64,000 bases of DNA from a virus. Its lineage: Duplodnaviria > Heunggongvirae > Uroviricota > Caudoviricetes. The translations under genes were made by a program, and so were the position numbers. The stretch is taken from IMG/VR virus record IMGVR_UViG_3300019935_000001, positions 36,145-100,144 of that record. One strand, 5' to 3'. A model generated the notes under the pieces. It ran no database searches and was not told the DNA's origin. It saw only the letters and a program-made list of their open reading frames with translations. Shown piece after piece: positions 175-55,354 of the stretch. Position 1 is the first letter of the stretch. The number at the start of each line of letters is the position of its first letter.

Positions 175-1305
175 TCAGAATCGCGGCGTAACCCACCGAC
201 CGGTTTGGATTAGATTCAAGCAGACGTTGATTCCCTTCTGAACCGGCCACCACTCCATCGAACCAAACTTCAACGACCAGTCGATCTCCCTAAGCAAGGT
301 CTTCACCCGATCTGGAGCAATCCCCATTTTCTCAAGTCTGGTTTTCACCTGCAGACGAATGTGCGGAAACATCTTCCACGAATCGCGCGAATGCGCTCCT
401 GTTGTCGTATAACATATCTCCGTAGGAGATTTATTTACCTTAGTACTTTGTGTCCCAGATTTGCGACCCCCCTGGCTGTCACCTCTGACACCCCCGCTGT
501 GAGTATCTTTTGTCAGTTCGGGCTGACTTGTCAGAGCGTTTCTAAGCGCGTTCAAATGCCGAATTGCTGTATTGTCACTACTTCTCTGTTTGCGCTCGTT
601 CTGAGCTAAAGCAGAGCGTTCTGCGGGCACATTCTCGCCGGGTTTCGGCTGTAGATTTCGATCTGAACAACCTTCTTCACATGTGCTGTGCTGAAAATCA
701 TAGTCGCGGATAGTCGCGATATATTCTGGTTGTTCAATTTGATCTTTGTAGTAGTCGCGGATAGTCTCGCTAATATCGTCTGGTTGCTCGCATAGTCCCG
801 GATAGTCGCGGTATTCATTGATTTTATTGTTAGAGTCGCGAACAGTCGCGGGGCAATCTTTCTTTACCTTCCGAATCTCTTCAAACTCATGTGCCGTTAT
901 CTGCTTGCTGATCACCTCGCGGGGGGTCGCGGACTTTCGTATCTTTTCCATTTCCTTCATCGGTAGTCGCGGACCATAGATGTTAGGCAAACTCTCACCG
1001 TCTGTTCCATTTCTCGTGACCACCAAAAGATAACCACCTTCCCGAAGCTCTTTGATTAATCGCCAGATAGTTGACTCCGACTTGCCTGTCGCAACTTTAA
1101 GGTAAGTCGCGGAGGCTTCAGTCTTCATGCCTGGTTTAAGCGCTGCCAACCTGTAAAGATTCAGCCACAGGATTTTGGCGGCGTCTGACAAGCCTGATCT
1201 CAGAAGCACATGGTCAATTACAGATGTCGCAAGGATGCGATATTCGTATCGCTCGTTGAGATATTGAAGCTGCTTCTCTGAGCAGGGTTCACACGGTCTG
1301 GACAT
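175..1305 (-). CDS. putative replication initiator (winged-helix N-terminal domain; iterons embedded mid-gene, lambda O-like layout)
   Basis: 376 aa. N-terminal wHTH-like segment (LSDAAKILWLNLYRLA...SESTIWRLIKELREGGYLLV). Central linker with repeated (T/S)IRDY peptides encoded by DNA repeats. Sits next to parAB. Confidence 0.6.
   Translation of the reverse strand: MSRPCEPCSEKQLQYLNERYEYRILATSVIDHVLLRSGLSDAAKILWLNLYRLAALKPGMKTEASATYLKVATGKSESTIWRLIKELREGGYLLVVTRNGTDGESLPNIYGPRLPMKEMEKIRKSATPREVISKQITAHEFEEIRKVKKDCPATVRDSNNKINEYRDYPGLCEQPDDISETIRDYYKDQIEQPEYIATIRDYDFQHSTCEEGCSDRNLQPKPGENVPAERSALAQNERKQRSSDNTAIRHLNALRNALTSQPELTKDTHSGGVRGDSQGGRKSGTQSTKVNKSPTEICYTTTGAHSRDSWKMFPHIRLQVKTRLEKMGIAPDRVKTLLREIDWSLKFGSMEWWPVQKGINVCLNLIQTGRWVTPRF
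701..851. repeat. iteron array: four tandem pairs of a 10-bp TAGTCGCGGA-type repeat
   Basis: Pairs start at 701/711, 752/762, 793/803 and 832/842. Core GTCGCG(G/A). An AT-rich patch lies at 812-831. Extra copies at 924, 964, 1103, 2418, 2448, 2488 (reverse) and 3364. Confidence 0.7.
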
Positions 1306-1323
1306 TGCTGTTCCCCTTAAACG

Positions 1324-1348
1324 AAAAAAGGGTCGCGAAGCGCGACCC
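1324..1348 (-). terminator. GC hairpin GGGTCGCG/CGCGACCC plus T6 on the minus strand (intrinsic terminator and/or Rep operator)
   Basis: Minus strand reads AAAGGGTCGCGCTTCGCGACCCTTTTTTCG. The arms are an inverted pair of the iteron core. It lies 25 nt upstream of the rep start codon. Confidence 0.5.
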
Positions 1349-1408
1349 TTTGGTGGTTGAGTAGTGTTGAGGCATTAAAAAAGGCCGCATTAAGCGACCT
1401 TTTCTTGT

Positions 1409-1598
1409 TTTGTCGTACCGGTACGACAAATGCGATTTTGGGTTATCTGGCGGGGGCGTACTGTATCTCATGGCCTCTTCTTCAATTCTGTCGTACCGGT
1501 ACGACAAACCTGCTTTGCCATACCTTTCTGATTTTGTCGTACCGGTACGACAAACGGTTTGTCATACCCTTTTTCTGTTTTGTCGTACCGGTACGACA
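1409..1598. repeat. parS-like centromere: four copies of the perfect palindrome TGTCGTACCGGTACGACA
   Basis: Cores at 1411-1428, 1489-1506, 1535-1552 and 1581-1598. The last three sit in 46-bp tandem units with similar spacers. The array lies directly downstream of the parB stop. Confidence 0.7.
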
Positions 1599-1600
1599 AA

Positions 1601-2659
1601 TTACTTCACTTTGGCTTCTGCCAGCTCCAGTAAGACCTTCAGGCAGTCATCTACAGAGACATGCTCAAGCAGATCCTTGCGCAGAGAGATCGTAGGGGTG
1701 CCATTGCTGTCGTTGCGGACAGTGAAGCACTCCTGACCATTCACCTTCACAGTGTTGGTCTTTGAATTTGTCGTACCGGTACGACAATGCTCTGTCACCT
1801 TGGAAACGCTGATCTTCCCATCACGTATTTTATCTGCGATCTCAACCAGCTTTGGTATGTTCTGCTCATTGTCACTGCAAAGGCGAGAGAGCAGTTTAAC
1901 CATCTTCAGGCCAACACCTGACATTGGGCCAATAGCTTCTATCAGGCCCCCTGGTAACTTTGTGTATGCCAGATGTTCGCTAATAACCCGACGATCCCGC
2001 TCAAGAGCCACTGCCAGTGCAGACTGGCTTTTATAGACGCCATCGTTGAGCAGCTTGCTCCAGAACATGGCGTCAGCCCATGCTGATAAGCCATCACGCT
2101 TGTCATTCTCCAGCTGCTGGACACGAGCTGCCTCGGCATCAGTAAGTGTCCGGACATTGGCCGGTACTTTGATTCCAAGCTCCAGACAGGCTTTCCAGCG
2201 ACGACGGCCCGCGATCACTTCAAATGAACCCGGTTGGGACGTGTCGGGGCGCACGATGATCGGAACCTCAATGCCTTCGGCTATAGACTTAACGAACTCG
2301 TCCCAGTTGCCAAACTCAGACTCCGGGCGATTCGCATACTTCCAGGGTTTGATTTTTTCAGCAGGGATCAGCCGAACCAGAAATTTATCATCTGGCTTTT
2401 GTGTGGACTTATCGTAGGTAGTCGCGGGCCTCTTCTTTCCTGAACTGCCAGTCGCGGTAGATTTTTCAGCTGCCTTGTTTTTGGCAGCCCGCGACTCTTC
2501 TTTCTTTGGCGCAGGTGAATCCGTTTCCGCTGCAGGAATTTCCAGCGCAGACAGGTTCAGGCCACTAATATCTGCCTTCGGAGCTTGTCTGTCCCGGAAT
2601 TGTTCGGACTGTGCCAACATCGCACCCATTGCGCCTGTCAGCTTCTTGTCACCAGCCAT
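1601..2659 (-). CDS. parB: ParB partition protein
   Basis: 352 aa. ParB-box motif FEVIAGRRRWKACLELG. Immediately downstream of parA (3-nt gap). Palindrome array follows. Confidence 0.85.
   Translation of the reverse strand: MAGDKKLTGAMGAMLAQSEQFRDRQAPKADISGLNLSALEIPAAETDSPAPKKEESRAAKNKAAEKSTATGSSGKKRPATTYDKSTQKPDDKFLVRLIPAEKIKPWKYANRPESEFGNWDEFVKSIAEGIEVPIIVRPDTSQPGSFEVIAGRRRWKACLELGIKVPANVRTLTDAEAARVQQLENDKRDGLSAWADAMFWSKLLNDGVYKSQSALAVALERDRRVISEHLAYTKLPGGLIEAIGPMSGVGLKMVKLLSRLCSDNEQNIPKLVEIADKIRDGKISVSKVTEHCRTGTTNSKTNTVKVNGQECFTVRNDSNGTPTISLRKDLLEHVSVDDCLKVLLELAEAKVK
1769..1786. repeat. fifth copy of the TGTCGTACCGGTACGACA palindrome, inside the parB 3' coding region
   Basis: Exact 18-bp core within parB, encoding ...HCRTGTTNSK... 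Confidence 0.6.
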
Positions 2660-2662
2660 TTA

Positions 2663-3826
2663 TTAATCCATCCCCCACACTCGGCAATAATCTTCAAAGA
2701 TCTCGCCGTATACCAGGTTGAAGTTATCGATTGCCCGCTTATAGGACTCACGGCTCGACAGAGGCTTGTTAAGGTCATAGACGCTTGTCAGTTGCTCACA
2801 CGCCTTCTCGACCTCTGTGGTCTGCACAATGGCGTTACTGAGGACGTATTCGCCGTATAATTCCCTGATGTCAGACTCGACCTTCCGGGCCGTCTGAGTG
2901 CCGCTGTGTTTCGTGATCAAGATACGCACGTAGTCCATCTTCTTGTCTACTGCATCGAACAGAACAGACAGGGAGTTGGAGAACATCACGAACGAAGCCA
3001 GGTCGTAGGTGGCCGGAGGCACTGGGATAACCATGGCGTCCGCTGCGATCAGAGCATTCGTTGTAAGAGCGCCCATGTTCGGCGGGCAGTCGATCAGAAT
3101 CAGGTCGTATATAGGGCGGAGGGCATCCACGACGCGCTTCAGGCGAAGTAGAGGCTCACCCATCTTGCGGGAATTGTTAACGTCCCGGTTCGGGAGAGCC
3201 AGGTCAAGATCCTGAATGCCCAGGTTAGCCGGAATCAGATGGACATTCGGAACGTAAGTCTGACGGATCACATTCTGCAGTGCTGAGTAGTCCTCAAGAA
3301 GCACTGGGTGAATGGTATCTTCAATTGTCAGTTCCAGGTCCGGGATGAATGGCCCCAGCGAGAAGGTCGCGGATGCTTGAGGGTCGAGATCGATAACCAG
3401 AACCTTCATGCCTTTGTTCGAGGCCATATAGTGAGCCTCATTGACAACGCTCGTGGTTTTGCCAACGCCACCCTTGAAGTTACTTGATGCCTTTACGATG
3501 GCACCAGTACCAGAGGGTTTCTGAAAGCCTGTACCAAGCTGTTCGCGCAGTTCCTGGATACGATGAAGGGTGTAGATCTTGCGACCGTTTGTGCCTTTCG
3601 GCGTGTCCTTGTCGTGTTCTCGGAGCCAAGGTACAGAGCGACCAATCATGGCTGCGGCTTCGGCAACACCATATGTCCGTGGCTCTTTCAGGGTCTTTGG
3701 GGAAACTATCGAGGCACGTAGCTCTTCGAGTTTTGCGCTCCCTTTACGATTGAAGTTGGCAAAAGTCTCGCCCGCGTTTTCCATGGCAAGCCGTGACTTT
3801 ACTGTATCGAAGAGGTCTTCTGACAT
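2663..3826 (-). CDS. parA: ParA partition ATPase, type Ia (long N-terminal extension)
   Basis: 387 aa. Deviant Walker A KGGVGKTT. Size matches P1 ParA / F SopA. parB lies downstream. Confidence 0.9.
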   Translation of the reverse strand: MSEDLFDTVKSRLAMENAGETFANFNRKGSAKLEELRASIVSPKTLKEPRTYGVAEAAAMIGRSVPWLREHDKDTPKGTNGRKIYTLHRIQELREQLGTGFQKPSGTGAIVKASSNFKGGVGKTTSVVNEAHYMASNKGMKVLVIDLDPQASATFSLGPFIPDLELTIEDTIHPVLLEDYSALQNVIRQTYVPNVHLIPANLGIQDLDLALPNRDVNNSRKMGEPLLRLKRVVDALRPIYDLILIDCPPNMGALTTNALIAADAMVIPVPPATYDLASFVMFSNSLSVLFDAVDKKMDYVRILITKHSGTQTARKVESDIRELYGEYVLSNAIVQTTEVEKACEQLTSVYDLNKPLSSRESYKRAIDNFNLVYGEIFEDYCRVWGMD

Positions 3827-5188: not shown

Positions 5189-7360
5189 ATGAACGGAAAG
5201 CAAAAACGTATACAGGTGATCAGAGAAGCGATGCTCAAGGTGGCCCGAATTATGGCCGGTCGTGGAATCAAGATCACTCAGGCGGGCACTGGTGCTTTTG
5301 TTCGGTATAACAGTCACACTGGCTGTATCGAAAGGATCAACATTCCGATGATCCCGGACGATGCCAGCGAAGATTTGATCCACGCAACGCATGGTTTCCT
5401 GGATCACGAGATCGGGCATGTGCTTTTTACTGAGTACGAATGCTTTGCAAAAGCGAACAGGGCCAAATGCGGCGTCTTGTTCAACATTGCGGAAGACACC
5501 TATGTTGAGCGAATGATGCAGTCCGAGTTCACAGGTTCAATCAGTAACCTGGGCAAGTCATGCCAAATCATGACTGAAAGGTACATTGAGCCGAAGCTCC
5601 GGGAGCTGCTGGCGCACACCGTTCCAACCGAAAAGGATTGGTGGGGGCTGTTATGTGCAACCTCTATCCGGGCAATAGCCGGGCAGGAGCACTTCATCGA
5701 TTACATGAACCAGGACGATAAGTGGGATCTGATCCCGAACTTCGGAAAGGTTCTGCGAAAGCACGAAGCTGAGATCAAGGCGATCAGTAGTTCACAGGAT
5801 TCGTATGAAGTGGCATTGAAGATCAAACAGGACATGCTGGCAGCTGAGCCCGAGGAGCAGGACAGTGAGCCAGACCAGTCCGGCGGTGACGATCAGCAGA
5901 GCGGTGGAGAAGGTAAAGCTGAAAAGCCGCAGGGTGACAGTGAAGGCGAAACCGATGATGGCACCCGAGCAGACGATACCTTCTCGAAAGGTGAAGGTGA
6001 AAGCTCTGGCGAAGAAGAAAAAGATGATTCTTCTTCATCTAGTAGCAACACACAACATAACAAAGACAGTGAAGATGATGACCAGTCAGACGAATCGGAT
6101 GCTGATAGCGATGACTCAAAGGGCGAGTCCGGCAGTGCTGGCTCCGATAGCGCTGAAGAAGGTGATGGTGAATCCGACGAAGGCCCTGGTGCCGGTGATA
6201 GTTCGGGGGATGGTTCAGACGATGATGAAGACTCTGAATCAGAAGGCAGATCAGGGGGTGCAGGCTCGTCAGCTGGCGGCGATGACGCAGGTGAAGGCGG
6301 CGATAGCGAGATTGATGCAGATGATGTGATTAATGACCCGATGGCTCCGTTGCTGACTGAATCAGAGGTGGAGAGCATGGGTGAAGACTTCGACGATGCG
6401 ATGACAAAGGTTATCGGCGAGATGTCAGCTGATGCACTTAGAGGCTCTGAAGAATATGTGCCGTTCACACGCGACTGGGACGTTATCGAGCCACTGAAGC
6501 TATCAAGAAACTACGATCCGAATCTGGCCGACAAGGTTGCTGATACAGTCAATTACATGGTTGGCACGATGGCGAAAAGTCTGGAGCGTGCATTTCGTGC
6601 AGCCAACCGATCCCGCTGGGAAGGCGGTAAGAAGTCTGGCCGTATTAACAGCGCCGCACTATCCCGATTACTGGCAAACGACCCACGGGTGATGCGTACC
6701 CGCCAGGAGATGAAGACTCGTGATGTAGCTGTTTCTCTATTGGTGGACTGCTCCGGCTCTATGAGTGGGAAGAAGATGGAGGTTGCGTGTCAGACTGCGT
6801 GGGCGCTGGGCGAGGTGCTATCAAAGCTGAATTTGCCTTGTGAGATACTGGGGTTCACAACCTGCAGAATCAAAAACCAGTTCGACCATTTGGAGAAGGA
6901 GCTGGCTGATGTATTCCGTGACGGTACAGGTCAGCAATTCAGCAGGTTCGAGCCGATCTATATACCTATATTCAAATCATTTGATGAGCGGTTTGGTACG
7001 GCAGCTAAAGCACGCCTTGCGGATGCCGCATACGAGGGTATGCGGCGGAAGATGAACTGCAATATTGATGGCGAATCTCTGCTGTACGCAGCCGAGCGCC
7101 TGCGGAAGCGCCCGGAGCCAGGAAAGGTAATGATTGTGTTGTCAGACGGAGCCCCGGCCGGTGTAGGTAAACAACTTGAAGCTCACCTGAAGAAGGTGGT
7201 CAAAGATCTCAATACCGAAGGCATCAACACTGTCGGGATCGGCATCATGAGTCAGGCGGTGAGATCTTACTACCCCCGCCATGTAATCCTGAACAAAGTA
7301 GAGGACCTCCCAAAGGCAGTTGTAGGGGAGCTGCGGGAGGCAATTCTGGCGAAAGACTGA
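5189..7360 (+). CDS. cobT: CobT-like protein with C-terminal VWA domain
   Basis: 723 aa. MIDAS motif DCSGSMSG. About 160-aa D/E/S/G-rich acidic region (nt about 5843-6329). N-terminal HEIGH (HExxH) at nt 5405-5419. Paired with the CobS-like ATPase. Confidence 0.7.
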   Translation: MNGKQKRIQVIREAMLKVARIMAGRGIKITQAGTGAFVRYNSHTGCIERINIPMIPDDASEDLIHATHGFLDHEIGHVLFTEYECFAKANRAKCGVLFNIAEDTYVERMMQSEFTGSISNLGKSCQIMTERYIEPKLRELLAHTVPTEKDWWGLLCATSIRAIAGQEHFIDYMNQDDKWDLIPNFGKVLRKHEAEIKAISSSQDSYEVALKIKQDMLAAEPEEQDSEPDQSGGDDQQSGGEGKAEKPQGDSEGETDDGTRADDTFSKGEGESSGEEEKDDSSSSSSNTQHNKDSEDDDQSDESDADSDDSKGESGSAGSDSAEEGDGESDEGPGAGDSSGDGSDDDEDSESEGRSGGAGSSAGGDDAGEGGDSEIDADDVINDPMAPLLTESEVESMGEDFDDAMTKVIGEMSADALRGSEEYVPFTRDWDVIEPLKLSRNYDPNLADKVADTVNYMVGTMAKSLERAFRAANRSRWEGGKKSGRINSAALSRLLANDPRVMRTRQEMKTRDVAVSLLVDCSGSMSGKKMEVACQTAWALGEVLSKLNLPCEILGFTTCRIKNQFDHLEKELADVFRDGTGQQFSRFEPIYIPIFKSFDERFGTAAKARLADAAYEGMRRKMNCNIDGESLLYAAERLRKRPEPGKVMIVLSDGAPAGVGKQLEAHLKKVVKDLNTEGINTVGIGIMSQAVRSYYPRHVILNKVEDLPKAVVGELREAILAKD

Positions 7361-7471
7361 TTTACCTGTAAAAACAGAACAAGAAAGTTGAGTCCCCTTG
7401 CTCTGTTTTTTACAATGTAAGCTCTTACTTAGCAATTAAGTAGTAACGACACACTAGAGACGGACAGAAGA

Positions 7472-8683
7472 ATGACGACCAAAGCTATCAACTGCGAAAT
7501 CTGTGGCGCATCGGTTCACACGATCAAAAAGCACCTGCGTGACGAGCACGAAGAGTGGACTCTGGAAAAGTATCAGGAAGAGTTCCCGGACGCTCCAATC
7601 TTCTCTGAGCTGGCGCTGCGGAAGATTGAAGAGGCCCGCAGTAGAACAAAAGCATCGGTCACGCAACTGGCAGAAGCTAATCCGGCTCAGCAGATCATCG
7701 AGCAGCAGAGCGTTAAGGTCGGAAAGATCGAGATGGGCAAAGCGTTCCGTCTGGGCAACACGAAAGCGACAGTCTCCCAAAAGTCTGGAAACCCGATCAT
7801 GATCACTCAGCTGCAGCGGGATAGCGTCAACTCGCCAGATATGATCCCGGAGTTCGATGATGGCTATATCTTCGACATTGAAGTCCTGAAAACGCTGTTG
7901 ATGGGCATCGAGCTGAGCATTCCTACTTACCTGTATGGTCATGCCGGTTTGGGAAAATCAACCATCTTTGAGCAGATTGCATCTGTCACCAACCGCCCGA
8001 TTCGTCGTGTGCAGCATACGGTGAATACAGAGGAATCTCACATCGTTGGTCAGTACGTTGTGAATCATGTGGAAGACCCGAAGACGGGCGAGCTGAAGGC
8101 GAAGACTGAGTTCCAGCTCGGCGATCTGCCGCTGGCGATGATGAACGGTGAGATCTTCCTTGCCGACGAGTACGACCGTGCCTATCCGTCTGTACTGTCT
8201 GTATACCAGGCAGTGCTGGAGGGTAAGCCCCTGCATATCAAGGATGCACCCGAAGAGCTGCGCGTGATCAAACCACATCCGCAATTCAGATTCGTAGCGA
8301 CCGGCAACACAAACGGCGCAGGTGACGACACCGGCTTGTATCAGGCTACGGTCGTACAGGACGCTGCGACATTTGAACGCTTTGGAATCGTTGAACGCAT
8401 CGACTACATGCCGAAGAAGCAGGAGGTTGCAATACTCCGAGCCAAGACCGGTTTGCTGGAAGAAGACGCCTCGGACATCGTGAAGTTTGCTACGCATATC
8501 CGGAAAGACGCCTTCCCGAACGAAGTGTCTCTGACCATCGGCCCGCGTGTGCTACTGAATATTGCCCGCGTCGGTATCGCCCGATTCAACACGCTGAAAG
8601 GTATCGAGGTTGCATACGCGAACCGACTGCCGGAAGCCGAGCGCCAGGCTGCTATGAACTATGCGCAGCGGATCTTCGGCTAA
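7472..8683 (+). CDS. cobS: CobS-like / MoxR-type AAA+ ATPase
   Basis: 403 aa. Walker A GHAGLGKS, Walker B IFLADEYD. N-terminal CxxC..H..H (CEICGASVHTIKKHLRDEH). ACACACTAGAGAC leader 10 nt upstream. Confidence 0.8.
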   Translation: MTTKAINCEICGASVHTIKKHLRDEHEEWTLEKYQEEFPDAPIFSELALRKIEEARSRTKASVTQLAEANPAQQIIEQQSVKVGKIEMGKAFRLGNTKATVSQKSGNPIMITQLQRDSVNSPDMIPEFDDGYIFDIEVLKTLLMGIELSIPTYLYGHAGLGKSTIFEQIASVTNRPIRRVQHTVNTEESHIVGQYVVNHVEDPKTGELKAKTEFQLGDLPLAMMNGEIFLADEYDRAYPSVLSVYQAVLEGKPLHIKDAPEELRVIKPHPQFRFVATGNTNGAGDDTGLYQATVVQDAATFERFGIVERIDYMPKKQEVAILRAKTGLLEEDASDIVKFATHIRKDAFPNEVSLTIGPRVLLNIARVGIARFNTLKGIEVAYANRLPEAERQAAMNYAQRIFG

Positions 8684-8693
8684 GGAGCGCGTC

Positions 8694-9269
8694 ATGACAC
8701 GACCACAAAATGCACCAGGCTGTTACGGCGTGGGCATTGCCTCCATGAAGAGTCCTGTCTGTAAAGAATGCGCAGCTCGTGAGGGTTGCGCAGAACGAGC
8801 TGTAGAGAACCTGCAGCTCGCTTCCGAGACGGTTGATGTAACCGATTACCTCGCAGTACATGGCCTGGCGCCAAAGCATAAGGGCGAGATGCCCCGCCAC
8901 TATCTAGCAAAGGTGAAAGTCCGGAAGGCGACTCAGCAGGAGCTGAGCATGTTCACAACTATGCCCGCAAAGGCTCGATCCATTGCAGAGTCATTGGTGA
9001 AGAAGAACATCTGTCTTCACACGAGCCTATCAACGAACCAGAACCCCTTTAACACAAACAAACCTCAGTACCTGAAGCCCGTATTCGACATGATACTGAA
9101 CTCCGGGGCGGTGTCCCGCCGCTCGATTATCGACGCGATCCGCTTATCTGGCAGCTCTGCTGCAACTCAGCGATCTCAGCTGTCAACTGCAATAGGGCTA
9201 CTGGAAGGCACCGGAGTCCTGATCAGAGATGGCGCTGAAAATTACAAGGTAGCAAACCGTGACATTTAA
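8694..9269 (+). CDS. hypothetical protein (Cys-rich N-terminus)
   Basis: ATG at 8694 preceded by AAGGAG; the track ORF starts at 8661 inside cobS. Contains CYG..CKECAAREGC. Confidence 0.5.
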   Translation: MTRPQNAPGCYGVGIASMKSPVCKECAAREGCAERAVENLQLASETVDVTDYLAVHGLAPKHKGEMPRHYLAKVKVRKATQQELSMFTTMPAKARSIAESLVKKNICLHTSLSTNQNPFNTNKPQYLKPVFDMILNSGAVSRRSIIDAIRLSGSSAATQRSQLSTAIGLLEGTGVLIRDGAENYKVANRDI

Positions 9270-12200
9270 CCTGACGCACTACATTGGTTGCCGCACCCAC
9301 TTCAGTCTGGGCGAAAGCATCCTGTCCCCTAAGCGGGCCGTTAATGAGCTGTCCGGCATTGCGCCGAGCATGACGATTACCGACCTGAACTCTGTAAATG
9401 CTCTGCCGAAGTCCTACAAGGAGGCGAAGAGCGACGATTTGAATCTGAATTTTGGCGCTGTCTTTAAGGTCGTTGATGACCTGGAGTGGCGGAAGCCAAA
9501 GAAGGGTGAGAAAAAGACAGTTAACCATTTCTTCTCACCTCGACTGATCGCCAAGAATGTAGATGGCATGAAGGACATCATGCACTTGCTGTCCGTATCG
9601 AATGATGCAGACCACTTCTACATGACACCACAATGCTCCATTGAGGAGCTGATCGAGGCAGCTTCACGCGGCAACGTGTACGTGACCACCGGGGACACGG
9701 ATTCGCTGTTTGCGCACCCGGAATACAGAACAAAGCTAGTGCAGCTGGTACGCGCTCTGAAAGCGTCTGATTTGCTGTTTGAAGTCGTTCCAGTCTGCAC
9801 GGCATATTATGACCGTCTTAACGAAACGACGATCAGAGTTGCAGAGAGACTGTCTGCAGCCATGATCGTCACGCGACCGATCTATTACAGCTCCAGCATG
9901 AGCGGCACCCGCAACGCCATGTACTGCGTGAAGAATCGTAGCCAGGTAACAGAGCGCTGGCGCTCCGAGCCTGCAGTGAACAACCTGCACCCCCTGGTTG
10001 CTGCAGACATGGAGCAGGAGCTGAGCAACCTGATAGATCGAATGGTGCTGCGCGACCTGGATCGTGATGCTGTGACTGAAGCCCTGCACCGCGCTGTCGA
10101 TACCACCAACGCTCTGCCTGAAAAGCTGAACTACGCCTGGGAACCATATGACATCTGTCTACCTTCCATGAGTGATGATCCGTTTGGTGGGCTGGTAGAG
10201 ATCGTAAAGCAAGGCTGGACAGACCGGATCGAAAAGGTGGTATACGGGTTCCAACCAGATCAGAGCCAGCTACCGGAGTATCGGGAGCGCCTGAAGTACG
10301 AACTATCTGTCTTGAAGCGCATGGGCTTTGAGAACTACTTCCTTCTGGTGCATCAGGTGGTGTCGCAGGCTAAATCCATGAACATCATGGTAGGCCCGGG
10401 ACGAGGATCTGTAGGTGGATCACTCGTCGCATTTTTGATGGGGATCACCGATGTTGACCCTATCCGCTTTGGCCTGATCTTTGAACGATTCATCAACCCG
10501 GATCGACTCGACCTTCCTGATGCCGACCTCGACTTTATGTCCTCCCGCCGTGAAGACATCATTAAATGGTTGGTCAAAGAGTATGGCCAGGATTATGTGT
10601 GTGGCATCAGTAACTACGGTGAGCTTGGTGCATCTTCGGCACTAAGGAGCGCAGGTAAGATCCACGGCCTGACCGAAACCGATGTTTCATGCTCCAAACA
10701 GGTGCCGAAAGAGCACGGTTCCAGCAAGTCACTGGAAGAAGCGAGAGAAGAGGTTCCGGCAATCAAGGTCTTCGCAGATAAGCACCCGGAAGTGTGGGCA
10801 GACGCCTGCAACCTGCAGGGCATCTTCAACGTTTACGGCCAGCACGCTGCAGGTGTTGTAGTGGCCGGCGAACCCATCATTGAACGTGCTGTGGTTGAAG
10901 TCCGCAAAGGCGGTCAGCTCTGCAACTGGGACAAAAGCGTGGTCGAAGAGTTCGGCCTGGTTAAGCTCGATGTGTTGGGCCTGAGTAACCTGGATGTACT
11001 GCGCCTGGCAAAGGACTACATCAAAGAGCGTCATGGCGTAGCAATCGACTACGAGGATGTTCCGCTGGATGATCCGGACGTTCTGGCTGCATTCGGTGAG
11101 GGCAAGACAAACGCCGTGTTCCAGTTCGAGTCTGGCGGTATGAAGGGCCTGCTGAAGTCACTGGCAGAGTCCGGAAGCCTGACGTTTGAAGACATCGCAG
11201 CGGCAACCGCTCTATTCCGTCCGGGCCCAATAGACGCTGGCCTGATGGATCAGTATGTCGCCATCAAAAACGGCAACATGACAGAGACGTACCCGCATCC
11301 GATTTGTGAAGGCGCGCTGCGAGAAACATACGGGGTAATGGTCTATCAGGAGCAGGTAATGCAGATCGCTCGGGATCTGTCGGGCTTCTCGATGGCTGAA
11401 GCTGACAAGCTGCGTAAAGCGATCGGTAAGAAAGACGCCGACCTGATGGCATCAATGGGCGAGAAGTTCGTGCAGGGTGCTCAGGAGTCGGGCATGGCCG
11501 AAGTATCTGCACAGGCATTGTGGGATGACATCCTCGGCTTCGCGGCTTACTCCTTCAACAAGTCTCACTCTGTCGCCTACACGATGATCTCCTACCTGAC
11601 GATGTGGCTGAAGGTAAAGTACCCGGCAGAGTTCTTTGCCGCCTCAATGTCGATCCTGAAAGAAGAGAAGCTGCCTGGCCTGGTGCGTGACTGTACCGAA
11701 GCTGGCTTGATCGTAGTGCCCCCGGACATTAACCGCTCCACTGACAGGTTCGAGATTGGCTATGACGGTGCCAGACAGTGTGATTCTCTGATTATCCCGT
11801 TCCAGCGATTGAAGGGTCTATCCGAGAAGGCGAGCGCGGCGATTGTCGAGGCCCGTGAGAAGCGGAAAGAAGAGCAGGGCGATAGTCGCTTTGTTTCAAA
11901 GAATGACTTCCTGGGCTATGTGGTGAAGCGGGTGTGCAATGTCCGGGTACAAAGTGCCCTGGATGCGGTCGGTGCTTTCGCGGAAATCGAAGGTCAGATT
12001 CCAGCTCTGCACCCGGATCGAATCAAAGATCAGAAGACCCTGCTACCGGGACTGATCGCCAGCAATGTGAAGGCGGACAGAAAGATCGACCTGTCACCTT
12101 TCGTTCGGCGGGAGCTGGTCGGGCTGATGCAGGAAGCAAAAGACTGCTGCGAAACCTTCAAGGGTGAAACCGTTGTCGGCCCAGCAATGGCTAAAGGTCG

Positions 12201-12660
12201 CGTACCGAAATTCATGGTCGTGATGGATGCACCGAACTGGGGCGAGAAAGATGCTGGCGTCATGTTGAAGGGAAAAGCCAGCAGAGACGTGCTGACTGCC
12301 CTGGACGAAGCCGGGCTCAAGCCTAGCGAGGGTTACTTTACGGCTCTGTCGAAAATGATGAAGCCGAAAGGTGAGAAGCAGATACCACAGCAAATGCTGA
12401 TCGACTTTGGCCCTATCCTGGCGCAAGAGATCGAGCTGCTGAAGCCACCGGTGATTGTGGCGCTCGGAACGGCTGCGGCCCGCTTCCTTCTGCCTGATCT
12501 GAAAGGTGGTTGGGAAGAGATCGCAGGTACAAGCCACTACGATGCCAAGCGGGACTGCACGGTGGTGATCGGGTGCAACCCGTCAATGGTGTATTTCGAT
12601 CCCGACCGGATCAACATTATCGTGGACGCATTTGAAAAAGCACGGGAGATGACAGAATGA
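9259..12660 (+). CDS. dnaE: DNA polymerase III alpha-type (DnaE) polymerase with C-terminal UDG-superfamily-like domain
   Basis: 1133 aa. PHP-like N-terminus, then a colinear DnaE core (GPGRGSVGGSLVAFLMGITDVDP, VKLDVLGLSNL, FRPGP, FNKSHSVAY). The last roughly 150 aa resemble family-4 UDG. Confidence 0.9.
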   Translation: MTFNLTHYIGCRTHFSLGESILSPKRAVNELSGIAPSMTITDLNSVNALPKSYKEAKSDDLNLNFGAVFKVVDDLEWRKPKKGEKKTVNHFFSPRLIAKNVDGMKDIMHLLSVSNDADHFYMTPQCSIEELIEAASRGNVYVTTGDTDSLFAHPEYRTKLVQLVRALKASDLLFEVVPVCTAYYDRLNETTIRVAERLSAAMIVTRPIYYSSSMSGTRNAMYCVKNRSQVTERWRSEPAVNNLHPLVAADMEQELSNLIDRMVLRDLDRDAVTEALHRAVDTTNALPEKLNYAWEPYDICLPSMSDDPFGGLVEIVKQGWTDRIEKVVYGFQPDQSQLPEYRERLKYELSVLKRMGFENYFLLVHQVVSQAKSMNIMVGPGRGSVGGSLVAFLMGITDVDPIRFGLIFERFINPDRLDLPDADLDFMSSRREDIIKWLVKEYGQDYVCGISNYGELGASSALRSAGKIHGLTETDVSCSKQVPKEHGSSKSLEEAREEVPAIKVFADKHPEVWADACNLQGIFNVYGQHAAGVVVAGEPIIERAVVEVRKGGQLCNWDKSVVEEFGLVKLDVLGLSNLDVLRLAKDYIKERHGVAIDYEDVPLDDPDVLAAFGEGKTNAVFQFESGGMKGLLKSLAESGSLTFEDIAAATALFRPGPIDAGLMDQYVAIKNGNMTETYPHPICEGALRETYGVMVYQEQVMQIARDLSGFSMAEADKLRKAIGKKDADLMASMGEKFVQGAQESGMAEVSAQALWDDILGFAAYSFNKSHSVAYTMISYLTMWLKVKYPAEFFAASMSILKEEKLPGLVRDCTEAGLIVVPPDINRSTDRFEIGYDGARQCDSLIIPFQRLKGLSEKASAAIVEAREKRKEEQGDSRFVSKNDFLGYVVKRVCNVRVQSALDAVGAFAEIEGQIPALHPDRIKDQKTLLPGLIASNVKADRKIDLSPFVRRELVGLMQEAKDCCETFKGETVVGPAMAKGRVPKFMVVMDAPNWGEKDAGVMLKGKASRDVLTALDEAGLKPSEGYFTALSKMMKPKGEKQIPQQMLIDFGPILAQEIELLKPPVIVALGTAAARFLLPDLKGGWEEIAGTSHYDAKRDCTVVIGCNPSMVYFDPDRINIIVDAFEKAREMTE

Positions 12661-12905
12661 AGATCTATGTGAAAATTGTAGTAATGATCCTGCTGTTTGT
12701 GTCAATGGTATCATCTCTACAGCTCAGTATTGCCGTGGCCACGTTTGTGGCATCGGGTATTGTAAGCGGGTTGGTATTTGGCGTGATGCCGGGCGGTGAC
12801 AACCGATACCTTTGCAAGTTTATAGTGTTGTGCGCAGCTGTAATGGCTTACTGGGGCATGATTGTTACCTTGGTTATTCTCGCTTCTTTATACCTAAATA
12901 AATAA
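12657..12905 (+). CDS. small membrane protein
   Basis: 82 aa, strongly hydrophobic (2-3 predicted TM segments). Start overlaps the dnaE stop (ATGA). Confidence 0.55.
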   Translation: MKIYVKIVVMILLFVSMVSSLQLSIAVATFVASGIVSGLVFGVMPGGDNRYLCKFIVLCAAVMAYWGMIVTLVILASLYLNK

Positions 12906-17070: not shown

Positions 17071-18372
17071 GGAGGGTGTTCACCGTTCTGTGTCACCGTT
17101 TTATTCACAGGTCGACATACTGGTCGATTCTGTCAGGGAAGTGGATGCTCAGCTGAGACAGCGTGAGGTTCCAGTTCTGCACTGGATGCGTCCACTTCTC
17201 TGAGGCCCTCAATATGCCCGCATAGAGCAGCTTCAGCAGGCTGTTTTCATTGGCGAAGCCACCCTTGGTTTTGGTCAGTTTCCGGAACTGACGGTGCACG
17301 GCCTCAACTGCATTGGTCGTGTAGATCGCACGCCTTACCTGTTCCGGGTACTTGAAGTACACCGACAGGTTCTCCCACTTGCTACGCCATGACTTGATGA
17401 CCAGCGGGTACTGTTTCCCCCACTTTGCCTCCAGCTCGTCCAGCGCCTGCTCTGCGGCGTTTCGCGTCGCCGCCTTGTAGACGCATTTCAGATCCACCAT
17501 AAATGCCTTCTGATTCTTGCTGGCGACGTACTTCATGGAGTTGCGGATCTGGTGAACAATACACAGCTGTACTTCTGTTTCCGGATAGATGCTTTCGATC
17601 GCTTCAGGAAAGCCTTTCAGACCATCCACAGAGGCAATAAGGATGTCTTTCAGACCTCGATTCTGCAGATCTGTCAGGACGCTGAGCCAGTAATGTGCAC
17701 CTTCATTTTCAGACAGATAGAGTCCCAGCAGCTCCTTCTTACCTTCGATGGTTAGCCCAAGAATGGTGTACACCGCTTTGGAGATGAAACGACCATTCTC
17801 TTTCACTTTGTAGTGAATGGCATCCAGCCAGACAAAAGGGTATACCGGCTCCAGATCACGCTCTTGCCAGGCTTTAAGCTCCGGCACCAGGCGATCAGTT
17901 ACGGCGTTAATCATGCCGTTGGAGACGCTCATACCGTACATTTCACAGATATGGTCACGGATGTTCTGGTAACTGCTGCCTAATGCAAACAGAGACAGTA
18001 TCTTGCCTTCCATTTCATCAGTCAGACGGGTCTGATATTTCCTGACAGTCTGGGGCTCAAATGAGCCATTGCGATCTCTCGGCGTCTCCAGCTCGAACTC
18101 GCCAGCAGCGGTTTTGACTGTTTTCTTTGAGGTGCCATTTTTCCGATTGGCGGCCGGATTTTCTGCAAGGTGCTCATCAATCTCTGCACCCAATGCGGCT
18201 TCAGTGATCTGTTTGATCAGTGGTGTCAGGAGGCCATCCTTGCCATTGAGGTTCTGTCCAGATTGCAGCGCTTTGGCAAACGCCTGAATATCGATTTCGT
18301 ACTTGTCAGACATGATGTGTCGCTCCCCGTTTCACTCAGTGTAGGAAACGACACAGAACTCTGAACACTACC
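17071..18372 (-). mobile_element. IS256-family insertion sequence (about 1.3 kb)
   Basis: Single Mutator-type transposase gene. Imperfect terminal inverted repeats: GGTGTTCACCGTTCTGTGTC (about 17075-17094) versus the reverse complement of GACACAGAACTCTGAACAC (18350-18368). No target-site duplication could be identified. Confidence 0.7.
17105..18313 (-). CDS. IS256-family (Mutator-type) transposase
   Basis: 402 aa. Typical family N-terminus (GKDGLLTPLIKQITEAALGAEIDEHL) and core (WLDAIHYKV, VDGLKGFPEAI, CIVHQIRNS). Confidence 0.9.
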   Translation of the reverse strand: MSDKYEIDIQAFAKALQSGQNLNGKDGLLTPLIKQITEAALGAEIDEHLAENPAANRKNGTSKKTVKTAAGEFELETPRDRNGSFEPQTVRKYQTRLTDEMEGKILSLFALGSSYQNIRDHICEMYGMSVSNGMINAVTDRLVPELKAWQERDLEPVYPFVWLDAIHYKVKENGRFISKAVYTILGLTIEGKKELLGLYLSENEGAHYWLSVLTDLQNRGLKDILIASVDGLKGFPEAIESIYPETEVQLCIVHQIRNSMKYVASKNQKAFMVDLKCVYKAATRNAAEQALDELEAKWGKQYPLVIKSWRSKWENLSVYFKYPEQVRRAIYTTNAVEAVHRQFRKLTKTKGGFANENSLLKLLYAGILRASEKWTHPVQNWNLTLSQLSIHFPDRIDQYVDL

Positions 18373-32545: not shown

Positions 32546-33541
32546 ATGTTTGTTAAGAAATCAAGCCACCCCGACCACACGTATATGGCTATGGTTGAAC
32601 AGATCCTCACAGAGGGCGAAGTTCGAGAAGACCGCACAGGTACTGGCACCATTTCGTTGTTCGGCCCGCAGATGCAGTTCGACCTGCTCGATGGCTTCCC
32701 GCTGCTGACGACCAAAAAAGTGAGCTGGAAGAATATCTGGACTGAGCTGTTCTGGTTCCTGAAGGGCGACACCAACATCAAGTTCCTGAACGGTGAAGGC
32801 AACCACATCTGGGACGAGTGGACTAATGATGAAGGCGACCTCGGCCCTGTATACGGCGCGATGTGGCGTAACTGGCCAAGCGAGAATGGTCCGATAGATC
32901 AGATCAACCAGCTGATCAAAAACCTGCGTGATAACCCCCTGAGTCGCCGCCACGTTATCTCCGGCTGGAACCCGGCTCTGCTGCCAGACGAAAACGAAGA
33001 CCACGCTACAAACGTAGCCAACGGCCGCCAGGCTCTGCCGCCGTGTCACACGCTGTTCCAGTTCTACGTGCAGAAAATGAGCACAGCAGATCGCCTGCGC
33101 TACCTGAAAAACATGCTGGGTGTTGATCCGGAGGACTGCGAGCTGCTGAAGCAGGCCGGTGATGCCGCTATCAATCAGTGTGCCGATGAACATCTGGTTC
33201 CGACTCAAAAGCTGAACTGCAAGCTGTACCAGCGCAGCGCCGACATGTTCCTGGGTGTGCCGTACAACATTGGCAGCTATGCAATGCTGACCGGCCTGAT
33301 CGCAGAGATGTGTGACATGGGCCCGGGCAACTTTATCCCTTCTTTTGGTGATGCCCATGTGTACAGCAACCATATCGAGCAGCTGCACACTCAGGCCAAG
33401 CGCTCTGCGAAGCACCTGCCGTTCCTGGATATTGATGAACGTGTTCGTGGCTATGAGTCTATCGACGAGCTGCGCCTGGACGATCTGCGTGTTGTTGGCT
33501 ACCAGAGCCATCCGGCCATCAAAGGGGCAGTTGCTGTATGA
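32546..33541 (+). CDS. thyA: thymidylate synthase (ThyA family, with insertions)
   Basis: 331 aa. REDRTGTGTISLFG, catalytic LPPCHTLFQFYV, YQRSADMFLGVPYNIGSYAML. About 45-aa insertion after FYV. Confidence 0.9.
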   Translation: MFVKKSSHPDHTYMAMVEQILTEGEVREDRTGTGTISLFGPQMQFDLLDGFPLLTTKKVSWKNIWTELFWFLKGDTNIKFLNGEGNHIWDEWTNDEGDLGPVYGAMWRNWPSENGPIDQINQLIKNLRDNPLSRRHVISGWNPALLPDENEDHATNVANGRQALPPCHTLFQFYVQKMSTADRLRYLKNMLGVDPEDCELLKQAGDAAINQCADEHLVPTQKLNCKLYQRSADMFLGVPYNIGSYAMLTGLIAEMCDMGPGNFIPSFGDAHVYSNHIEQLHTQAKRSAKHLPFLDIDERVRGYESIDELRLDDLRVVGYQSHPAIKGAVAV

Positions 33542-34098
33542 ACGTAACAGCCATGGCTGCGGTCGGGCCGAACTGGGAGCTGGGGTTCAAAGGGGATCTC
33601 ATTTACCGGAACAGCGATGACCTGATGATGTTCAAGGCATTCACGATGGGCAAGGTTGTTGTGGTTGGTCGCAAAACCTATGAGTCGATGCCACCGCTGA
33701 AGGGCCGGACAGTTATCTGTCTGACCCGAAGCAAGAGCGTTCAGCCAAAGCAGGATGGTGATCTGATTCTGCGCACACGCCGGGGCGGTAAGTCGCCTTG
33801 GCCGCAGATCAAAAAGATTGCTGAACGGGCAGGGCAGGATGTTGTTGTAGCTGGCGGTGCAGAGATCTATGCACTGATGGCCCAGAACGTCACCAGTTTG
33901 CTTCTGACGCTGTTTTCAGATGGTGCGACATACGCTGACACCTATTTCCCAAAAGACGCCTACAGTGAGCTGCTGGCGTTTAACAGCTCCAAATACATAT
34001 GGGGCGATCAAAGCGACGAGATCTATGCGACTCAGCTTTTTGAAAAGGGCCTGACAACTCAGCGGGCCACCGAATTACTTCAACCGATCTACTTTTGA
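33538..34098 (+). CDS. folA: dihydrofolate reductase
   Basis: 186 aa. DHFR-like pattern (AAVGPNWELGFKGDL..., VVVGRKTYESMPPLKGR). ATGA overlap with thyA. Confidence 0.75.
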   Translation: MNVTAMAAVGPNWELGFKGDLIYRNSDDLMMFKAFTMGKVVVVGRKTYESMPPLKGRTVICLTRSKSVQPKQDGDLILRTRRGGKSPWPQIKKIAERAGQDVVVAGGAEIYALMAQNVTSLLLTLFSDGATYADTYFPKDAYSELLAFNSSKYIWGDQSDEIYATQLFEKGLTTQRATELLQPIYF

Positions 34099-34110
34099 GA
34101 GACAAACGAC

Positions 34111-34683
34111 ATGGCACGTAGCAAAGCCGATAGCTTCAACATGGTTAACGAGTTCCACACGCTGGCAGATCAACCGGTCGCAGGCAAAGGTGCTGCACAG
34201 ATCCCGGATCTTCGAGCGGTTCGATTCCGTGAGCACTTCAAGATAGAGGAGCTGATTGAAGGTCTTGAGGCTCTGACGGCAAAGGGTAGCGTAACTGCCC
34301 AGCGCACGATTGACCTGCTGCGCCAGGCACAGAGCAAATGGATGGAGCTGCAGGAAAGTGATCTCGATGTGGATCTGGTTGAGTACGCTGATAGCCTTGG
34401 TGATCTGCGATACGTTACGGACGGTGCGGCGCACTATTACAACATCGACATGAACAAGGTGATGCCGGCCATCCACACTGGCAACATGACCCGGTTCCCG
34501 CGCAACGAAGAAGAGCTGGCTGCAACTCTGCAGAAGGCTGAAGAGATGGGCGTAGAGGTCGATCACCACCTCTCCGAGGAACACGGTGTGTATGTTGTGA
34601 CCCGCAGAGACACCGGCAAAGTCTTCAAAAACGCAATGCACACGCTGCCAGACCTGACACCTATCCTGGGGGTTAATGGCTAA
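34111..34683 (+). CDS. MazG-like all-alpha NTP pyrophosphohydrolase (putative)
   Basis: 190 aa. EExxE (KIEELIEGLE) and ExxD (VEYADSLGD) motif pair. Nucleotide-metabolism neighbourhood. Confidence 0.45.
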   Translation: MARSKADSFNMVNEFHTLADQPVAGKGAAQIPDLRAVRFREHFKIEELIEGLEALTAKGSVTAQRTIDLLRQAQSKWMELQESDLDVDLVEYADSLGDLRYVTDGAAHYYNIDMNKVMPAIHTGNMTRFPRNEEELAATLQKAEEMGVEVDHHLSEEHGVYVVTRRDTGKVFKNAMHTLPDLTPILGVNG

Positions 34684-35288
34684 TGGGTTTAGGACTCGCA
34701 GGTACGCATCGAACCGGCAAGACGACTCTGGCAAAGGCCGTAGCTGAAAAGCTCGGCCTTCCCTTCCTGCAGTCAGAGGTCGCCGGTGTACTGGATGACA
34801 TGGGTATTAGTGCAGACCAGCAGATGGACTTCAGAACACGAATGAAGGCCCAGTTTGCGATTCTGGAGCATCACTCAAAGCTATGGCGTGAAAGCCCCAC
34901 CTTCGTGGCGGACAGAACACCTCTGTGCTTCATGATGTACACGCTTTCAGACATTCAGCCGCAGGGTTGGGATCAGAGCGTTCTGGAGGATTATGTAGAG
35001 TCGTGCTTTCAGGTTGCCAACCGTCACTTCTCTACCATCGTCCTGCTGCAACCCGGCATCCCGGTTGTTAAAGCGAGCAAGAACACCGGGCGTCTCAGTG
35101 AGGCTCTGATGTTCAAACAGAACTATTTGGCCAAGGGACTCCTGTCAGACGAGCGCCTGTTGGCCAAAGCCAGTTTCATTCGGGAGAGCCTGATCGACCT
35201 GGAGAGCCGGGTCGATGCAGTCAGCGCCATGTACGCTGAGGACAGGAAGTTGGCCGCGATTTTCAGTACCCAACAAATTCTTCATTGA
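34683..35288 (+). CDS. P-loop NTPase, possible nucleotide kinase
   Basis: 201 aa. N-terminal Walker A GTHRTGKTT. Confidence 0.45.
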   Translation: MGLGLAGTHRTGKTTLAKAVAEKLGLPFLQSEVAGVLDDMGISADQQMDFRTRMKAQFAILEHHSKLWRESPTFVADRTPLCFMMYTLSDIQPQGWDQSVLEDYVESCFQVANRHFSTIVLLQPGIPVVKASKNTGRLSEALMFKQNYLAKGLLSDERLLAKASFIRESLIDLESRVDAVSAMYAEDRKLAAIFSTQQILH

Positions 35289-35387: not shown

Positions 35388-35837
35388 ATGACCGCACAAG
35401 CTATATGGGATGTACCGGATGTCGGCGAGGAGCTGAATAGGAAGGTGCTGGAGACGCTCGACTATCTGGAAAAGAAGAAGAGCAGCGGGGAAATACTGGA
35501 GCGGGACTTCTGTGTTGCCCTGCTAACGCTCAATCAAGTCGCTCTGGGCCTGTACGACCGGGATCTTGCGGAGTGGGTTAGCACGTACCTTTCTGAGAAT
35601 GGGCGTGTACTGAAGCCGATCACCGCCCGCCGTGTATTCGCAGCACCGGCTGCCACCTTTGTCGTTGAATACGAAACAGGCTCTGCTGAGCTGAGAATCT
35701 TCCGGGTTCAGGATGGCGCAGTGAAGCTGCTGAAGCACCTGGATTCATCTGACCAGATAGACGGCATCCGCATCGCCCATAGCAAGTACGTTCGCACAGT
35801 GCGGGAACTTTCAGACAAATATACGGAGGTTCGATAA
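35388..35837 (+). CDS. hypothetical protein
   Basis: 149-aa ORF preceded by the palindrome and a leader-like ACACGCATAGCAGAGA. Confidence 0.5.
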   Translation: MTAQAIWDVPDVGEELNRKVLETLDYLEKKKSSGEILERDFCVALLTLNQVALGLYDRDLAEWVSTYLSENGRVLKPITARRVFAAPAATFVVEYETGSAELRIFRVQDGAVKLLKHLDSSDQIDGIRIAHSKYVRTVRELSDKYTEVR

Positions 35838-36448
35838 TGCGCGAACTGATTGTAAATGTTACCGATATTGAAACTACTGGCCTGAAGCAGGAAGACGGCC
35901 ATCGCATCATTGAGGTTGCGATGGCCCTGCTGAAGATCCAGTTCAACGACGACAACACCTTTGCTGGCTATAAGCGAGTAGGCAAAACCTGGTGTCAGCG
36001 AATCAATCCGTGCCGGAACATCGATGCAGCTGCACAGGCTGTTCACGGTATCAGCTTATCGAGTCTGCGCGGCGAGCCGGTCTGGGAAGATGTAGCCGGG
36101 CGTGTTGCAAAGATCCTGGCGGCGAGTGATGTCGCGGTGGCTCACAATGTTGAGTTTGATATGCCGTTCATTGCTCTGGAGCTGGTACGCATTGGCCAAG
36201 AGATCCCGGACTTCGAAACCTTCTGTACTTTGGAAGGCGGGCGATCTGCTACGGGCCTGGGCACAGTACCTAGCCTGCAGAAGCTATGTTGGGCCATGGG
36301 TGTGCCGTACAACCCGGATGAAGCCCACGCTGCTGATTACGATGTGGACTGCACAGTTGATGCGCTGGTCAAGGGTTTGAATCTGGGATACTTCAGCTTC
36401 GCTGATGTCCTGAACGAAAAGTATGGTGAAGCCAGTGCTGAAGTTTGA
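35837..36448 (+). CDS. DnaQ-like DEDDh 3'-5' exonuclease
   Basis: 203 aa. Exo I VTDIETTGL, Exo II VAHNVEFDMPF, Exo III HAADYDVDC. Confidence 0.8.
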   Translation: MRELIVNVTDIETTGLKQEDGHRIIEVAMALLKIQFNDDNTFAGYKRVGKTWCQRINPCRNIDAAAQAVHGISLSSLRGEPVWEDVAGRVAKILAASDVAVAHNVEFDMPFIALELVRIGQEIPDFETFCTLEGGRSATGLGTVPSLQKLCWAMGVPYNPDEAHAADYDVDCTVDALVKGLNLGYFSFADVLNEKYGEASAEV

Positions 36449-55095: not shown

Positions 55096-55098
55096 GAT

Positions 55099-55344: not shown

Positions 55345-55354
55345 ATTGGTAACA

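Follow-up and report, generated by a model that had tools for sequence, protein, structure and literature searches.

A variant of the C-family polymerase DnaE in which the OB fold and the C-terminal domain (CTD) are replaced by a uracil-DNA glycosylase (UDG) domain of the PF03167 type is described by Timinskas et al. (2014; PMC3919608) for Yersinia pestis and Salmonella enterica, and the DnaE-UDG architecture is therefore already published. UDG domains are also known from phage A-family polymerases (PolA). For SPO1 and T5 PolA, the domain was proposed to confer processivity as an intrinsic factor, in analogy to vaccinia D4-A20, and phages with C-family polymerases were, with one exception, found to be without a beta-clamp homolog (Kazlauskas & Venclovas, NAR 2011, PMC3201878). 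According to a 2025 preprint (10.1101/2025.03.26.645540), the UDG domain fused to N4-like PolA no longer has its catalytic residues, the fused domains of SPO1-like and SP15-like PolA are active, and those of the SP15-like enzymes have a positive surface. Cryo-EM in the same work placed the type-IV UDG domain on the 5' template strand, which it grips in front of the polymerase site in the same way as mpox E4. Literature searches for the DnaE-linked UDG domain yielded no paper in which it was tested. Here, a dnaE-UDG gene is analysed from a stretch of 64,000 nucleotides of a Caudoviricetes virus (positions 36,145 to 100,144 of IMG/VR record IMGVR_UViG_3300019935_000001). This stretch, referred to as the window, represents 64 kb of an element of about 103 kb. 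The protein encoded by the gene is a divergent new member of the described and very widespread DnaE-UDG architecture and no new type of fusion.

Pfam searches detected all parts of a C-family, DnaE-type polymerase in the protein, PHP domain, Pol III alpha core, fingers and (HhH)2 domain (Table 1), and the Pol III alpha superfamily model of NCBIfam, TIGR00594, was matched with 620.8 bits (cut-off 434.35). The model for E. coli-type DnaE1 equivalogs, PRK05673, yielded 660.9 bits, which is under its cut-off of 1002, and the match stopped at model position 886 of 1146. No match to an OB fold or a tau-binding CTD was obtained for the fusion protein in the Pfam and NCBIfam scans, and it does not qualify as a bacterial DnaE1. 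The (HhH)2 domain is the last portion in common with bacterial DnaE; only 222 residues follow, about 190 of which constitute a UDG fold. In bacterial DnaE1, such as E. coli Pol III alpha, the OB fold and the CTD occupy the same position of the polypeptide, directly after (HhH)2, but the folds are unrelated. In the fusion polymerase, the OB fold and the tau-binding CTD are replaced by the UDG domain. The same gene of 1133 amino acids (aa) was called on ENA metagenome contig ERZ27248054 (102.7 kb), which carries identical genes.

The first-pass annotation of this DNA had proposed a family-4-derived UDG-superfamily domain with altered catalytic motifs at the C-terminus of a C-family polymerase, and this is borne out by Pfam and NCBIfam profiles and by alignment. 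The proposal had hinged on a UDG-superfamily match in profile searches, and PF03167 supplied one at aa 984-1110, scoring 31.6 bits with the whole protein and 35.7 bits with the last 199 aa alone (gathering cut-off 24.3). The family-4 model TIGR00758 was matched with an E value of 1e-10 and scores of 36.8 and 41.6 bits, which do not reach its cut-off of 125.3, and the archaeal type-4 UDG model of NCBIfam also matched the tail far under its cut-off. The domain has the alpha/beta fold of the superfamily, and in the predicted structure fold and pocket-forming loops are intact (pLDDT 96). The C-terminal domain is a UDG fold descended from family 4. The altered motifs were likewise found in the translation and the alignment exactly where they had been placed, with MDAPN for GE[AG]PG and NPS for HP[SA]. 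An enzyme of the cross-linking UdgX type was also considered and was ruled out by the score of TIGR03914, 26.5 and 30.9 bits compared with a cut-off of 189.95.

Known family-4 UDGs, for example those of Thermus thermophilus (1ui0), Thermotoga maritima (1l9g/1vk2), and Sulfolobus tokodaii (4zbx), are free enzymes, whereas the domain described here is part of a polymerase. In the Thermus enzyme (Tth UDGa), the pocket consists of E41, G42, E47, F54, N80, and H155 (Xia et al. 2017, PMC5387724). N80 forms bidentate hydrogen bonds to N3/O4 of uracil, F54 provides stacking, H155 contacts O2 and also stabilises the base that leaves, and N89 holds the water in position for attack; k2/Km drops three to four orders of magnitude with the exchange H155S (PMC5387724). 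For positioning of the water, three solutions are described, Asp in motif 1 of UNG, Asn in motif 1 of MUG, and Asn in motif 3 of UDGa/UDGb (PMC5387724).

The window domain was aligned with those of 45 full-length relatives (n = 46) and with three family-4 reference segments. In this alignment E41, G42, E47, F54, N80, and H155 of Tth UDGa correspond to D990, A991, E996, L1003, A1029, and N1107, and N89 to G1038 in a column that is mostly gapped. Among the seven pocket and catalytic residues, F54, N80, N89, and H155, all carried by family-4 UDGs, are therefore gone and replaced by L, A, G, and N, respectively, and E41 is changed to Asp. The same substitutions at catalytic positions are present in the DnaE-UDG lineage as a whole. 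Gly is never found at the first position of motif 1, its second position, that of E41, is Asp in 42 of the 46 domains, and A, C, or G is found where UNG or MUG have the water-positioning Asp or Asn of this motif. The residue corresponding to E47 is acidic (E/D) in 43. Asn does not occur at the position of N80 (0/46), where A, S, G, or T are found, and Phe is retained at the position of F54 in only three domains, the others having mostly M, L, G, or A. An Asn equivalent to N89 is present in a single domain, and the position of H155 is occupied by N (30), S (10), or T (5), but never by His. All three water-positioning solutions are missing. The canonical combination of Glu, Asn, and His was detected among 151 proteins retrieved almost only in the most distant matches, for the most part free-standing UDGs of 160-280 aa. 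As judged from the alignment, residues for recognition and excision of uracil are missing across the DnaE-UDG family.

A comparable picture emerged for the iron-sulfur (Fe-S) site. Family-4 UDGs carry a set of four cysteines for a 4Fe-4S cluster, and this set is not complete in any of the 46 domains. Three cysteines, the CxxC pair and the fourth Cys, are kept in 19 of them, including that of nickie, and the cysteine of the 'VKC' sequence is found in none of these 19. The pattern is fully gone in 23, among them the window protein, which has no CxxC in the region of aa 962-967 and M1033 and F1050 at the other two positions; Cys at position 1033 occurs in two of the 46. This distribution looks like stepwise decay of the Fe-S site from a true Fe-S family-4 ancestor or, alternatively, could mark a residual metal site that survives in part of the family. 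With respect to motif 1, motif 2, N80, F54, N89, the Fe-S cysteines, and the TIGR00758 score, the domain falls outside family 4 (UDGa) proper.

Between the HhH domain and the UDG fold lies a linker with a motif (Table 1) that is the most conserved element of the C-terminal third; R921 is conserved in 42, Q925 in 43, L928 in 36, and both P930 and G931 in 38 of the 46 proteins. The linker motif was considered as a candidate for a beta-clamp-binding motif at the position of the E. coli alpha QADMF sequence. In phmmer searches, the alignments to Pol III alpha of E. coli and Taq do not extend as far as the motif. An AlphaFold2 model of aa 745-1133 (pLDDT 91.9, pTM 0.84) predicted the 33 residues between HhH and UDG to be ordered (pLDDT 92-95), with a helix at aa 919-928. 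Since the linker is predicted to be ordered, the model points to the HhH domain and the UDG fold being joined into a single rigid unit. With the motif ordered within this unit, an interdomain connector would fit better than a free clamp-binding peptide.

Outside the window, the architecture proved to be common. The phage protein family phrog_405, annotated as 'DNA polymerase', covers aa 9-1130 of the 1133 residues (E 5.7e-268), and the protein can be aligned from end to end with the 45 relatives. This lineage, the 'DnaEX' of Timinskas et al. (2014), shows the identical arrangement of PHP, Pol3, fingers, (HhH)2, and UDG (PF03167), with OB and CTD missing. In tblastn searches with the UDG domain, 33 phage records were detected, among them nickie-like Pseudomonas phages with about 40% identity, RHEph10-like Rhizobium phages, Stenotrophomonas phages, and SSU5-like phage-plasmids with 26%, and nearly all matches are located in genes labelled just 'DNA polymerase III alpha'. 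The same search revealed 949 plasmid records, mostly non-mobilizable plasmids of about 100-120 kb (phage-plasmids of the SSU5/pMT1/pHCM2 type), including those of Klebsiella (308), Escherichia (215), Acinetobacter (154), Enterobacter (90), Yersinia (63), and Salmonella (49). The best plasmid match, on an Aeromonas plasmid, showed 45% identity, and this is about the ceiling in the phage and plasmid collections. While a word-indexed homolog search with the domain returned two proteins only, an exhaustive HMMER scan of 1.84 billion representatives gave 382 matches with E<=1e-3 and 117 clusters with E<=1e-10. These were chiefly proteins of about 1080-1155 aa with the domain at the C-terminus, plus proteins of about 380-420 aa. 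Many of the shorter matches, and phrog_4335, are explained by splitting of dnaE in Acinetobacter phage-plasmids. On plasmid p5759_1 of Acinetobacter baumannii (NZ_CP096711.1; locus L007 2348-6591), the gene is divided into an N-terminal part of 785 aa and a C-terminal part of 421 aa with a NUMOD4 homing-endonuclease-like gene between them, and the C-terminal piece, HhH plus a UDG-like domain, is annotated as 'uracil-DNA glycosylase family protein'. The view that such a fusion is unusual on DnaE holds for cellular DnaE, but not for the phage and phage-plasmid lineage, where it is standard. An artefact of assembly or read-through was rejected, since complete genomes of phages and plasmids carry the fusion as well.

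Within the lineage, the window protein is very divergent. Its UDG domain is 26% identical to that of SSU5, and nothing is left in it of the CxxC...C pattern that remains of the Fe-S site in 19 of the 46 proteins. With the gene as query, megablast gave no match among phages, and with 12 kb against plasmids only patches of 157 bp in Aeromonas plasmids were obtained, with no close relative deposited. Mean pairwise identity was 0.33 for the UDG domain, 0.25 for PHP, 0.39 for HhH, and 0.26 for the linker. By this sequence measure, the UDG domain is about as constrained as other non-catalytic parts and is retained under constraint.

Taken together, the gene product is a C-family polymerase and serves as the replicase of an SSU5/nickie-like phage or phage-plasmid. 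In it, a domain derived from a family-4 (Fe-S) UDG has taken the place of the OB fold and the tau-binding CTD. The UDG fold has been kept, and the uracil-binding residues N80 and F54, the leaving-base residue H155, the water-positioning N89, and the Fe-S cysteines have been lost. Because N80, F54, H155, and N89 are replaced, the domain most likely no longer excises uracil. We consider it probable, at roughly 0.55, that it is a non-catalytic module for DNA handling or architecture that stands in for OB and CTD, as in N4-like PolA and poxvirus D4. Rigidly joined to the HhH domain, such a nucleic-acid-handling or architectural module would hold on to template or primer-template DNA close to the polymerase and would supply part of the roles of OB and CTD in DNA contact, processivity, and replisome geometry. 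We infer DNA binding and a role in processivity or template handling by analogy with these other polymerases.

Several observations weigh against this reading. The former active-site and DNA loops are not significantly enriched in conserved columns (8/39 versus 13/120, Fisher p = 0.10; Mann-Whitney test of entropy, p = 0.12). The domain is about neutral (net charge -2; family mean -1.3), unlike the positive surface of the UDG domain of SP15-like PolA, but the partial Tth and Sto reference segments of active UDGs have similar net charges of -2 and +2, and charge is uninformative as a proxy for DNA binding. No sliding-clamp homolog was detected among the larger open reading frames (ORFs) of the window that were scanned, and a clamp or another partner could be encoded in the part of the element outside the 64 kb. 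Finally, the acidic residues at the positions of D990 (Asp in 42/46) and E996 (43/46) could point to residual or altered chemistry. Asn also stands in motif 2 of family-2 MUG, an active glycosylase, and therefore NPS alone is no proof of inactivity.

These acidic residues, the functioning of MUG-type enzymes with Asn in motif 2, and the intact fold and pocket-forming loops of the model would all fit a domain that is still a glycosylase with another catalytic solution, for example Asp990/Glu996 plus Asn1107. It could then clear uracil or another base from the template ahead of synthesis, as do the active fused domains of SPO1-like and SP15-like PolA (10.1101/2025.03.26.645540). Such activity is unlikely, however, with all three water-positioning solutions of the superfamily missing, the leaving-group His and the uracil-specific Asn absent from all 46 domains, and the stacking F54 changed to Leu here and kept in just three of them; in Tth UDGa, the H155S exchange alone lowers k2/Km more than 1000-fold (PMC5387724). 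Also unlikely is a reading in which the domain is no passive remnant but either a read-ahead module that flips and inspects template bases in a remodelled hydrophobic pocket, with Ala/Ser at N80, Leu/Met at F54, and Asn at H155, or a glycosylase with a new catalytic arrangement on Asp990. If true, template surveillance would be coupled directly to DnaE-type replication, a coupling for which A- and B-family polymerases are the only examples shown so far. Very unlikely is the idea, raised in the first-pass annotation, of a sensor of uracil or a modified base; such a sensor would read ahead in the template and stall or modulate the polymerase without cutting, comparable to the uracil pocket of archaeal family-B enzymes. 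The geometry is plausible, as UDG domains of PolA and poxvirus polymerases scan the 5' template (10.1101/2025.03.26.645540), and a pocket devoid of catalytic residues could hold a flipped base without excising it. But since N80, F54, and H155 are replaced by small or aliphatic residues or Asn here and in essentially the whole family, canonical recognition of uracil is gone, and a uracil sensor finds no backing. For a sensor of modified bases, nothing in support was detected either. No base-modification pathway tied to the polymerase was found, and the genes for ThyA, DHFR, a MazG-like and a thymidylate-kinase-like protein suggest ordinary dT DNA rather than a hypermodification derived from uracil, with ThyA plus DHFR pointing to thymine.

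A further possibility is that DNA contact is irrelevant and the domain serves mainly as a protein-protein adaptor replacing the tau-binding CTD, tethering the polymerase to helicase, primase, SSB, a DnaQ-like exonuclease, or the host beta clamp. The domain occupies the exact place of the partner-binding CTD of cellular DnaE, its conservation is spread out with no focus on the old active-site loops, its net charge is not positive, and DnaQ-like exonuclease, SSB, and helicase are encoded in the window. Nevertheless, such an adaptor function appears rather unlikely. The candidate partners are putative, and the UDG module contacts DNA in every polymerase-associated UDG that has been characterised (SP15-like PolA, poxvirus D4/E4; 10.1101/2025.03.26.645540). 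Moreover, the OB fold, a DNA-binding domain, was lost along with the CTD, and some function in DNA contact therefore needs replacing.

The genomic setting agrees with that of DnaE-UDG genes of phages and phage-plasmids, which reside in the replication module of elements of about 100-120 kb. The window contains the replication and partition module of an SSU5/nickie-like element with genes for Rep, ParB, ParA, CobT, CobS, DnaE, SSB, FEN, RecA, SbcCD, RuvC, and NrdAB in the order known from nickie and SSU5. In both, the genes for the CobT-like and the CobS/MoxR-like protein and the small ORF precede dnaE, followed by SSB, 5'-3' exonuclease, and RecA; in the window, gp32-type SSB, 5'-3' exonuclease, and RecA/UvsX are encoded downstream. 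The CobT/CobS/small ORF arrangement, including its synteny with the polymerase gene, is conserved in nickie, SSU5 (annotated as 'porphyrin biosynthetic protein'), and Acinetobacter plasmids ('MoxR family ATPase'). The Rep/DnaD-like, ParB, and ParA genes indicate maintenance of the phage-plasmid type. Further genes of the window specify SbcD, SbcC, RuvC, NrdA, NrdB, and an SF2 helicase. The DnaQ-like exonuclease is likely the proofreading partner of the polymerase.

Table 1. Features of the dnaE-UDG gene and its surroundings (positions refer to the 64-kb window)
Feature	Position	Strand	Remarks
dnaE-UDG gene (1133-aa DnaE-UDG fusion polymerase)	9259..12660, stop included	+	GTG start; single unbroken ORF
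PHP domain, aa 11-154	9289..9720	+	PF02811, 31.5 bits, cut-off 26.4
Pol III alpha catalytic core (DNA_pol3_alpha), aa 313-574	10195..10980	+	PF07733, E 3.4e-69
Fingers domain, aa 577-744	10987..11490	+	PF17657, E 6.9e-53
(HhH)2 / beta-binding-type domain (HHH_6), aa 816-911	11704..11991	+	PF14579, E 1.3e-10
Linker motif RIKDQKTLLPGL, aa 921-932	12019..12054	+	family consensus R-x-[KR]-D-Q-x-x-L-[LM]-P-G-[LIV]
UDG-fold domain, aa 944-1133 (~190 aa)	12088..12657	+	family-4-derived; in place of OB fold and tau-binding CTD
Motif 1 remnant MDAPN, aa 989-993	12223..12237	+	GE[AG]PG site; D990 at the place of Tth E41 (alignment)
Motif 3 region YFTALSKMMK, aa 1026-1035	12334..12363	+	Y-I-T-N-V-V-K-C-R-P site; A1029 for N80, M1033 for Fe-S ligand C84
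Motif 2 remnant NPS, aa 1107-1109	12577..12585	+	HP[SA] site; N1107 for catalytic H155
Rep/DnaD-like, ParB, ParA genes	175-3826	-	plasmid-like maintenance module, as in SSU5-type elements
CobT-like (VWA), CobS/MoxR-like AAA+, small ORF (phrog_3616)	5189-9269	+	directly upstream of dnaE
82-aa very hydrophobic ORF, predicted membrane protein	12657-12905	+	ATG overlaps dnaE stop codon
Insertion sequence (IS)-type transposase ORF	17105-18313	-	phrog_2331, E 5e-150; between RecA/UvsX and SbcD
ThyA, DHFR, MazG-like pyrophosphohydrolase, thymidylate-kinase-like cluster	32546-35288	+	nucleotide metabolism
DnaQ/epsilon-like 3'-5' exonuclease, separate gene	35837-36448	+	PF00929, E 4e-20; phrog_192 'DNA polymerase exonuclease subunit'
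DndB-family protein, then 279-aa PtuA-like (Septu) AAA ATPase ORF	53593-56185	+	PF14072, E 6e-76; PADLOC DndB, E 9e-79

Some of the neighbouring features deserve mention. The hydrophobic ORF overlapping the end of dnaE was also called on the matching metagenome contig (L008 1962-2210). This contig stops about 500 bp downstream of RecA, just short of the position of the IS transposase ORF, consistent with a break of the assembly at a repeat. A dip in GC content (0.447 at 18-20 kb) adjoins the transposase ORF. The PtuA-like ORF is shorter than the models (about 440 aa), and the ATPase is possibly truncated; together with the DndB gene, it may constitute a cargo module associated with defence or DNA modification.

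Including the C-family case, replicative polymerases have acquired UDG folds on at least three occasions, in trans in B-family enzymes (poxvirus and others), at the N-terminus in phage A-family enzymes, and at the C-terminus in this C-family lineage. For the A- and B-family cases, structures are available in which the UDG module sits on the template strand in front of the active site. The C-family DnaE-UDG spans about 950 sequenced plasmids (Klebsiella, Escherichia, Acinetobacter, Yersinia pestis pMT1, Salmonella pHCM2-type) and several phage genera. Once its domain is recognised as a dead grip on DNA, a device for processivity, or a cryptic enzyme, it should become clear how 100-kb genomes are replicated by a DnaE without the OB and tau-binding domains. 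The main value of the window protein lies in its very divergent sequence, which sharpens the view of the residues that the family truly conserves. Compared with the fusions on phage A-family polymerases (N4-like, SPO1-like, and SP15-like, with phiLo and YerA41 studied by cryo-EM), in which the UDG domain is N-terminal and the polymerase belongs to an unrelated family, the domain is C-terminal in DnaE-UDG and stands in place of OB and CTD. The poxvirus proteins, vaccinia D4 and mpox E4, in which a UDG is a subunit of the polymerase processivity factor, provide a functional analogy only; unlike the domain fused to DnaE, D4 is of the family-1 type, catalytically active, encoded separately, and bridged by A20.

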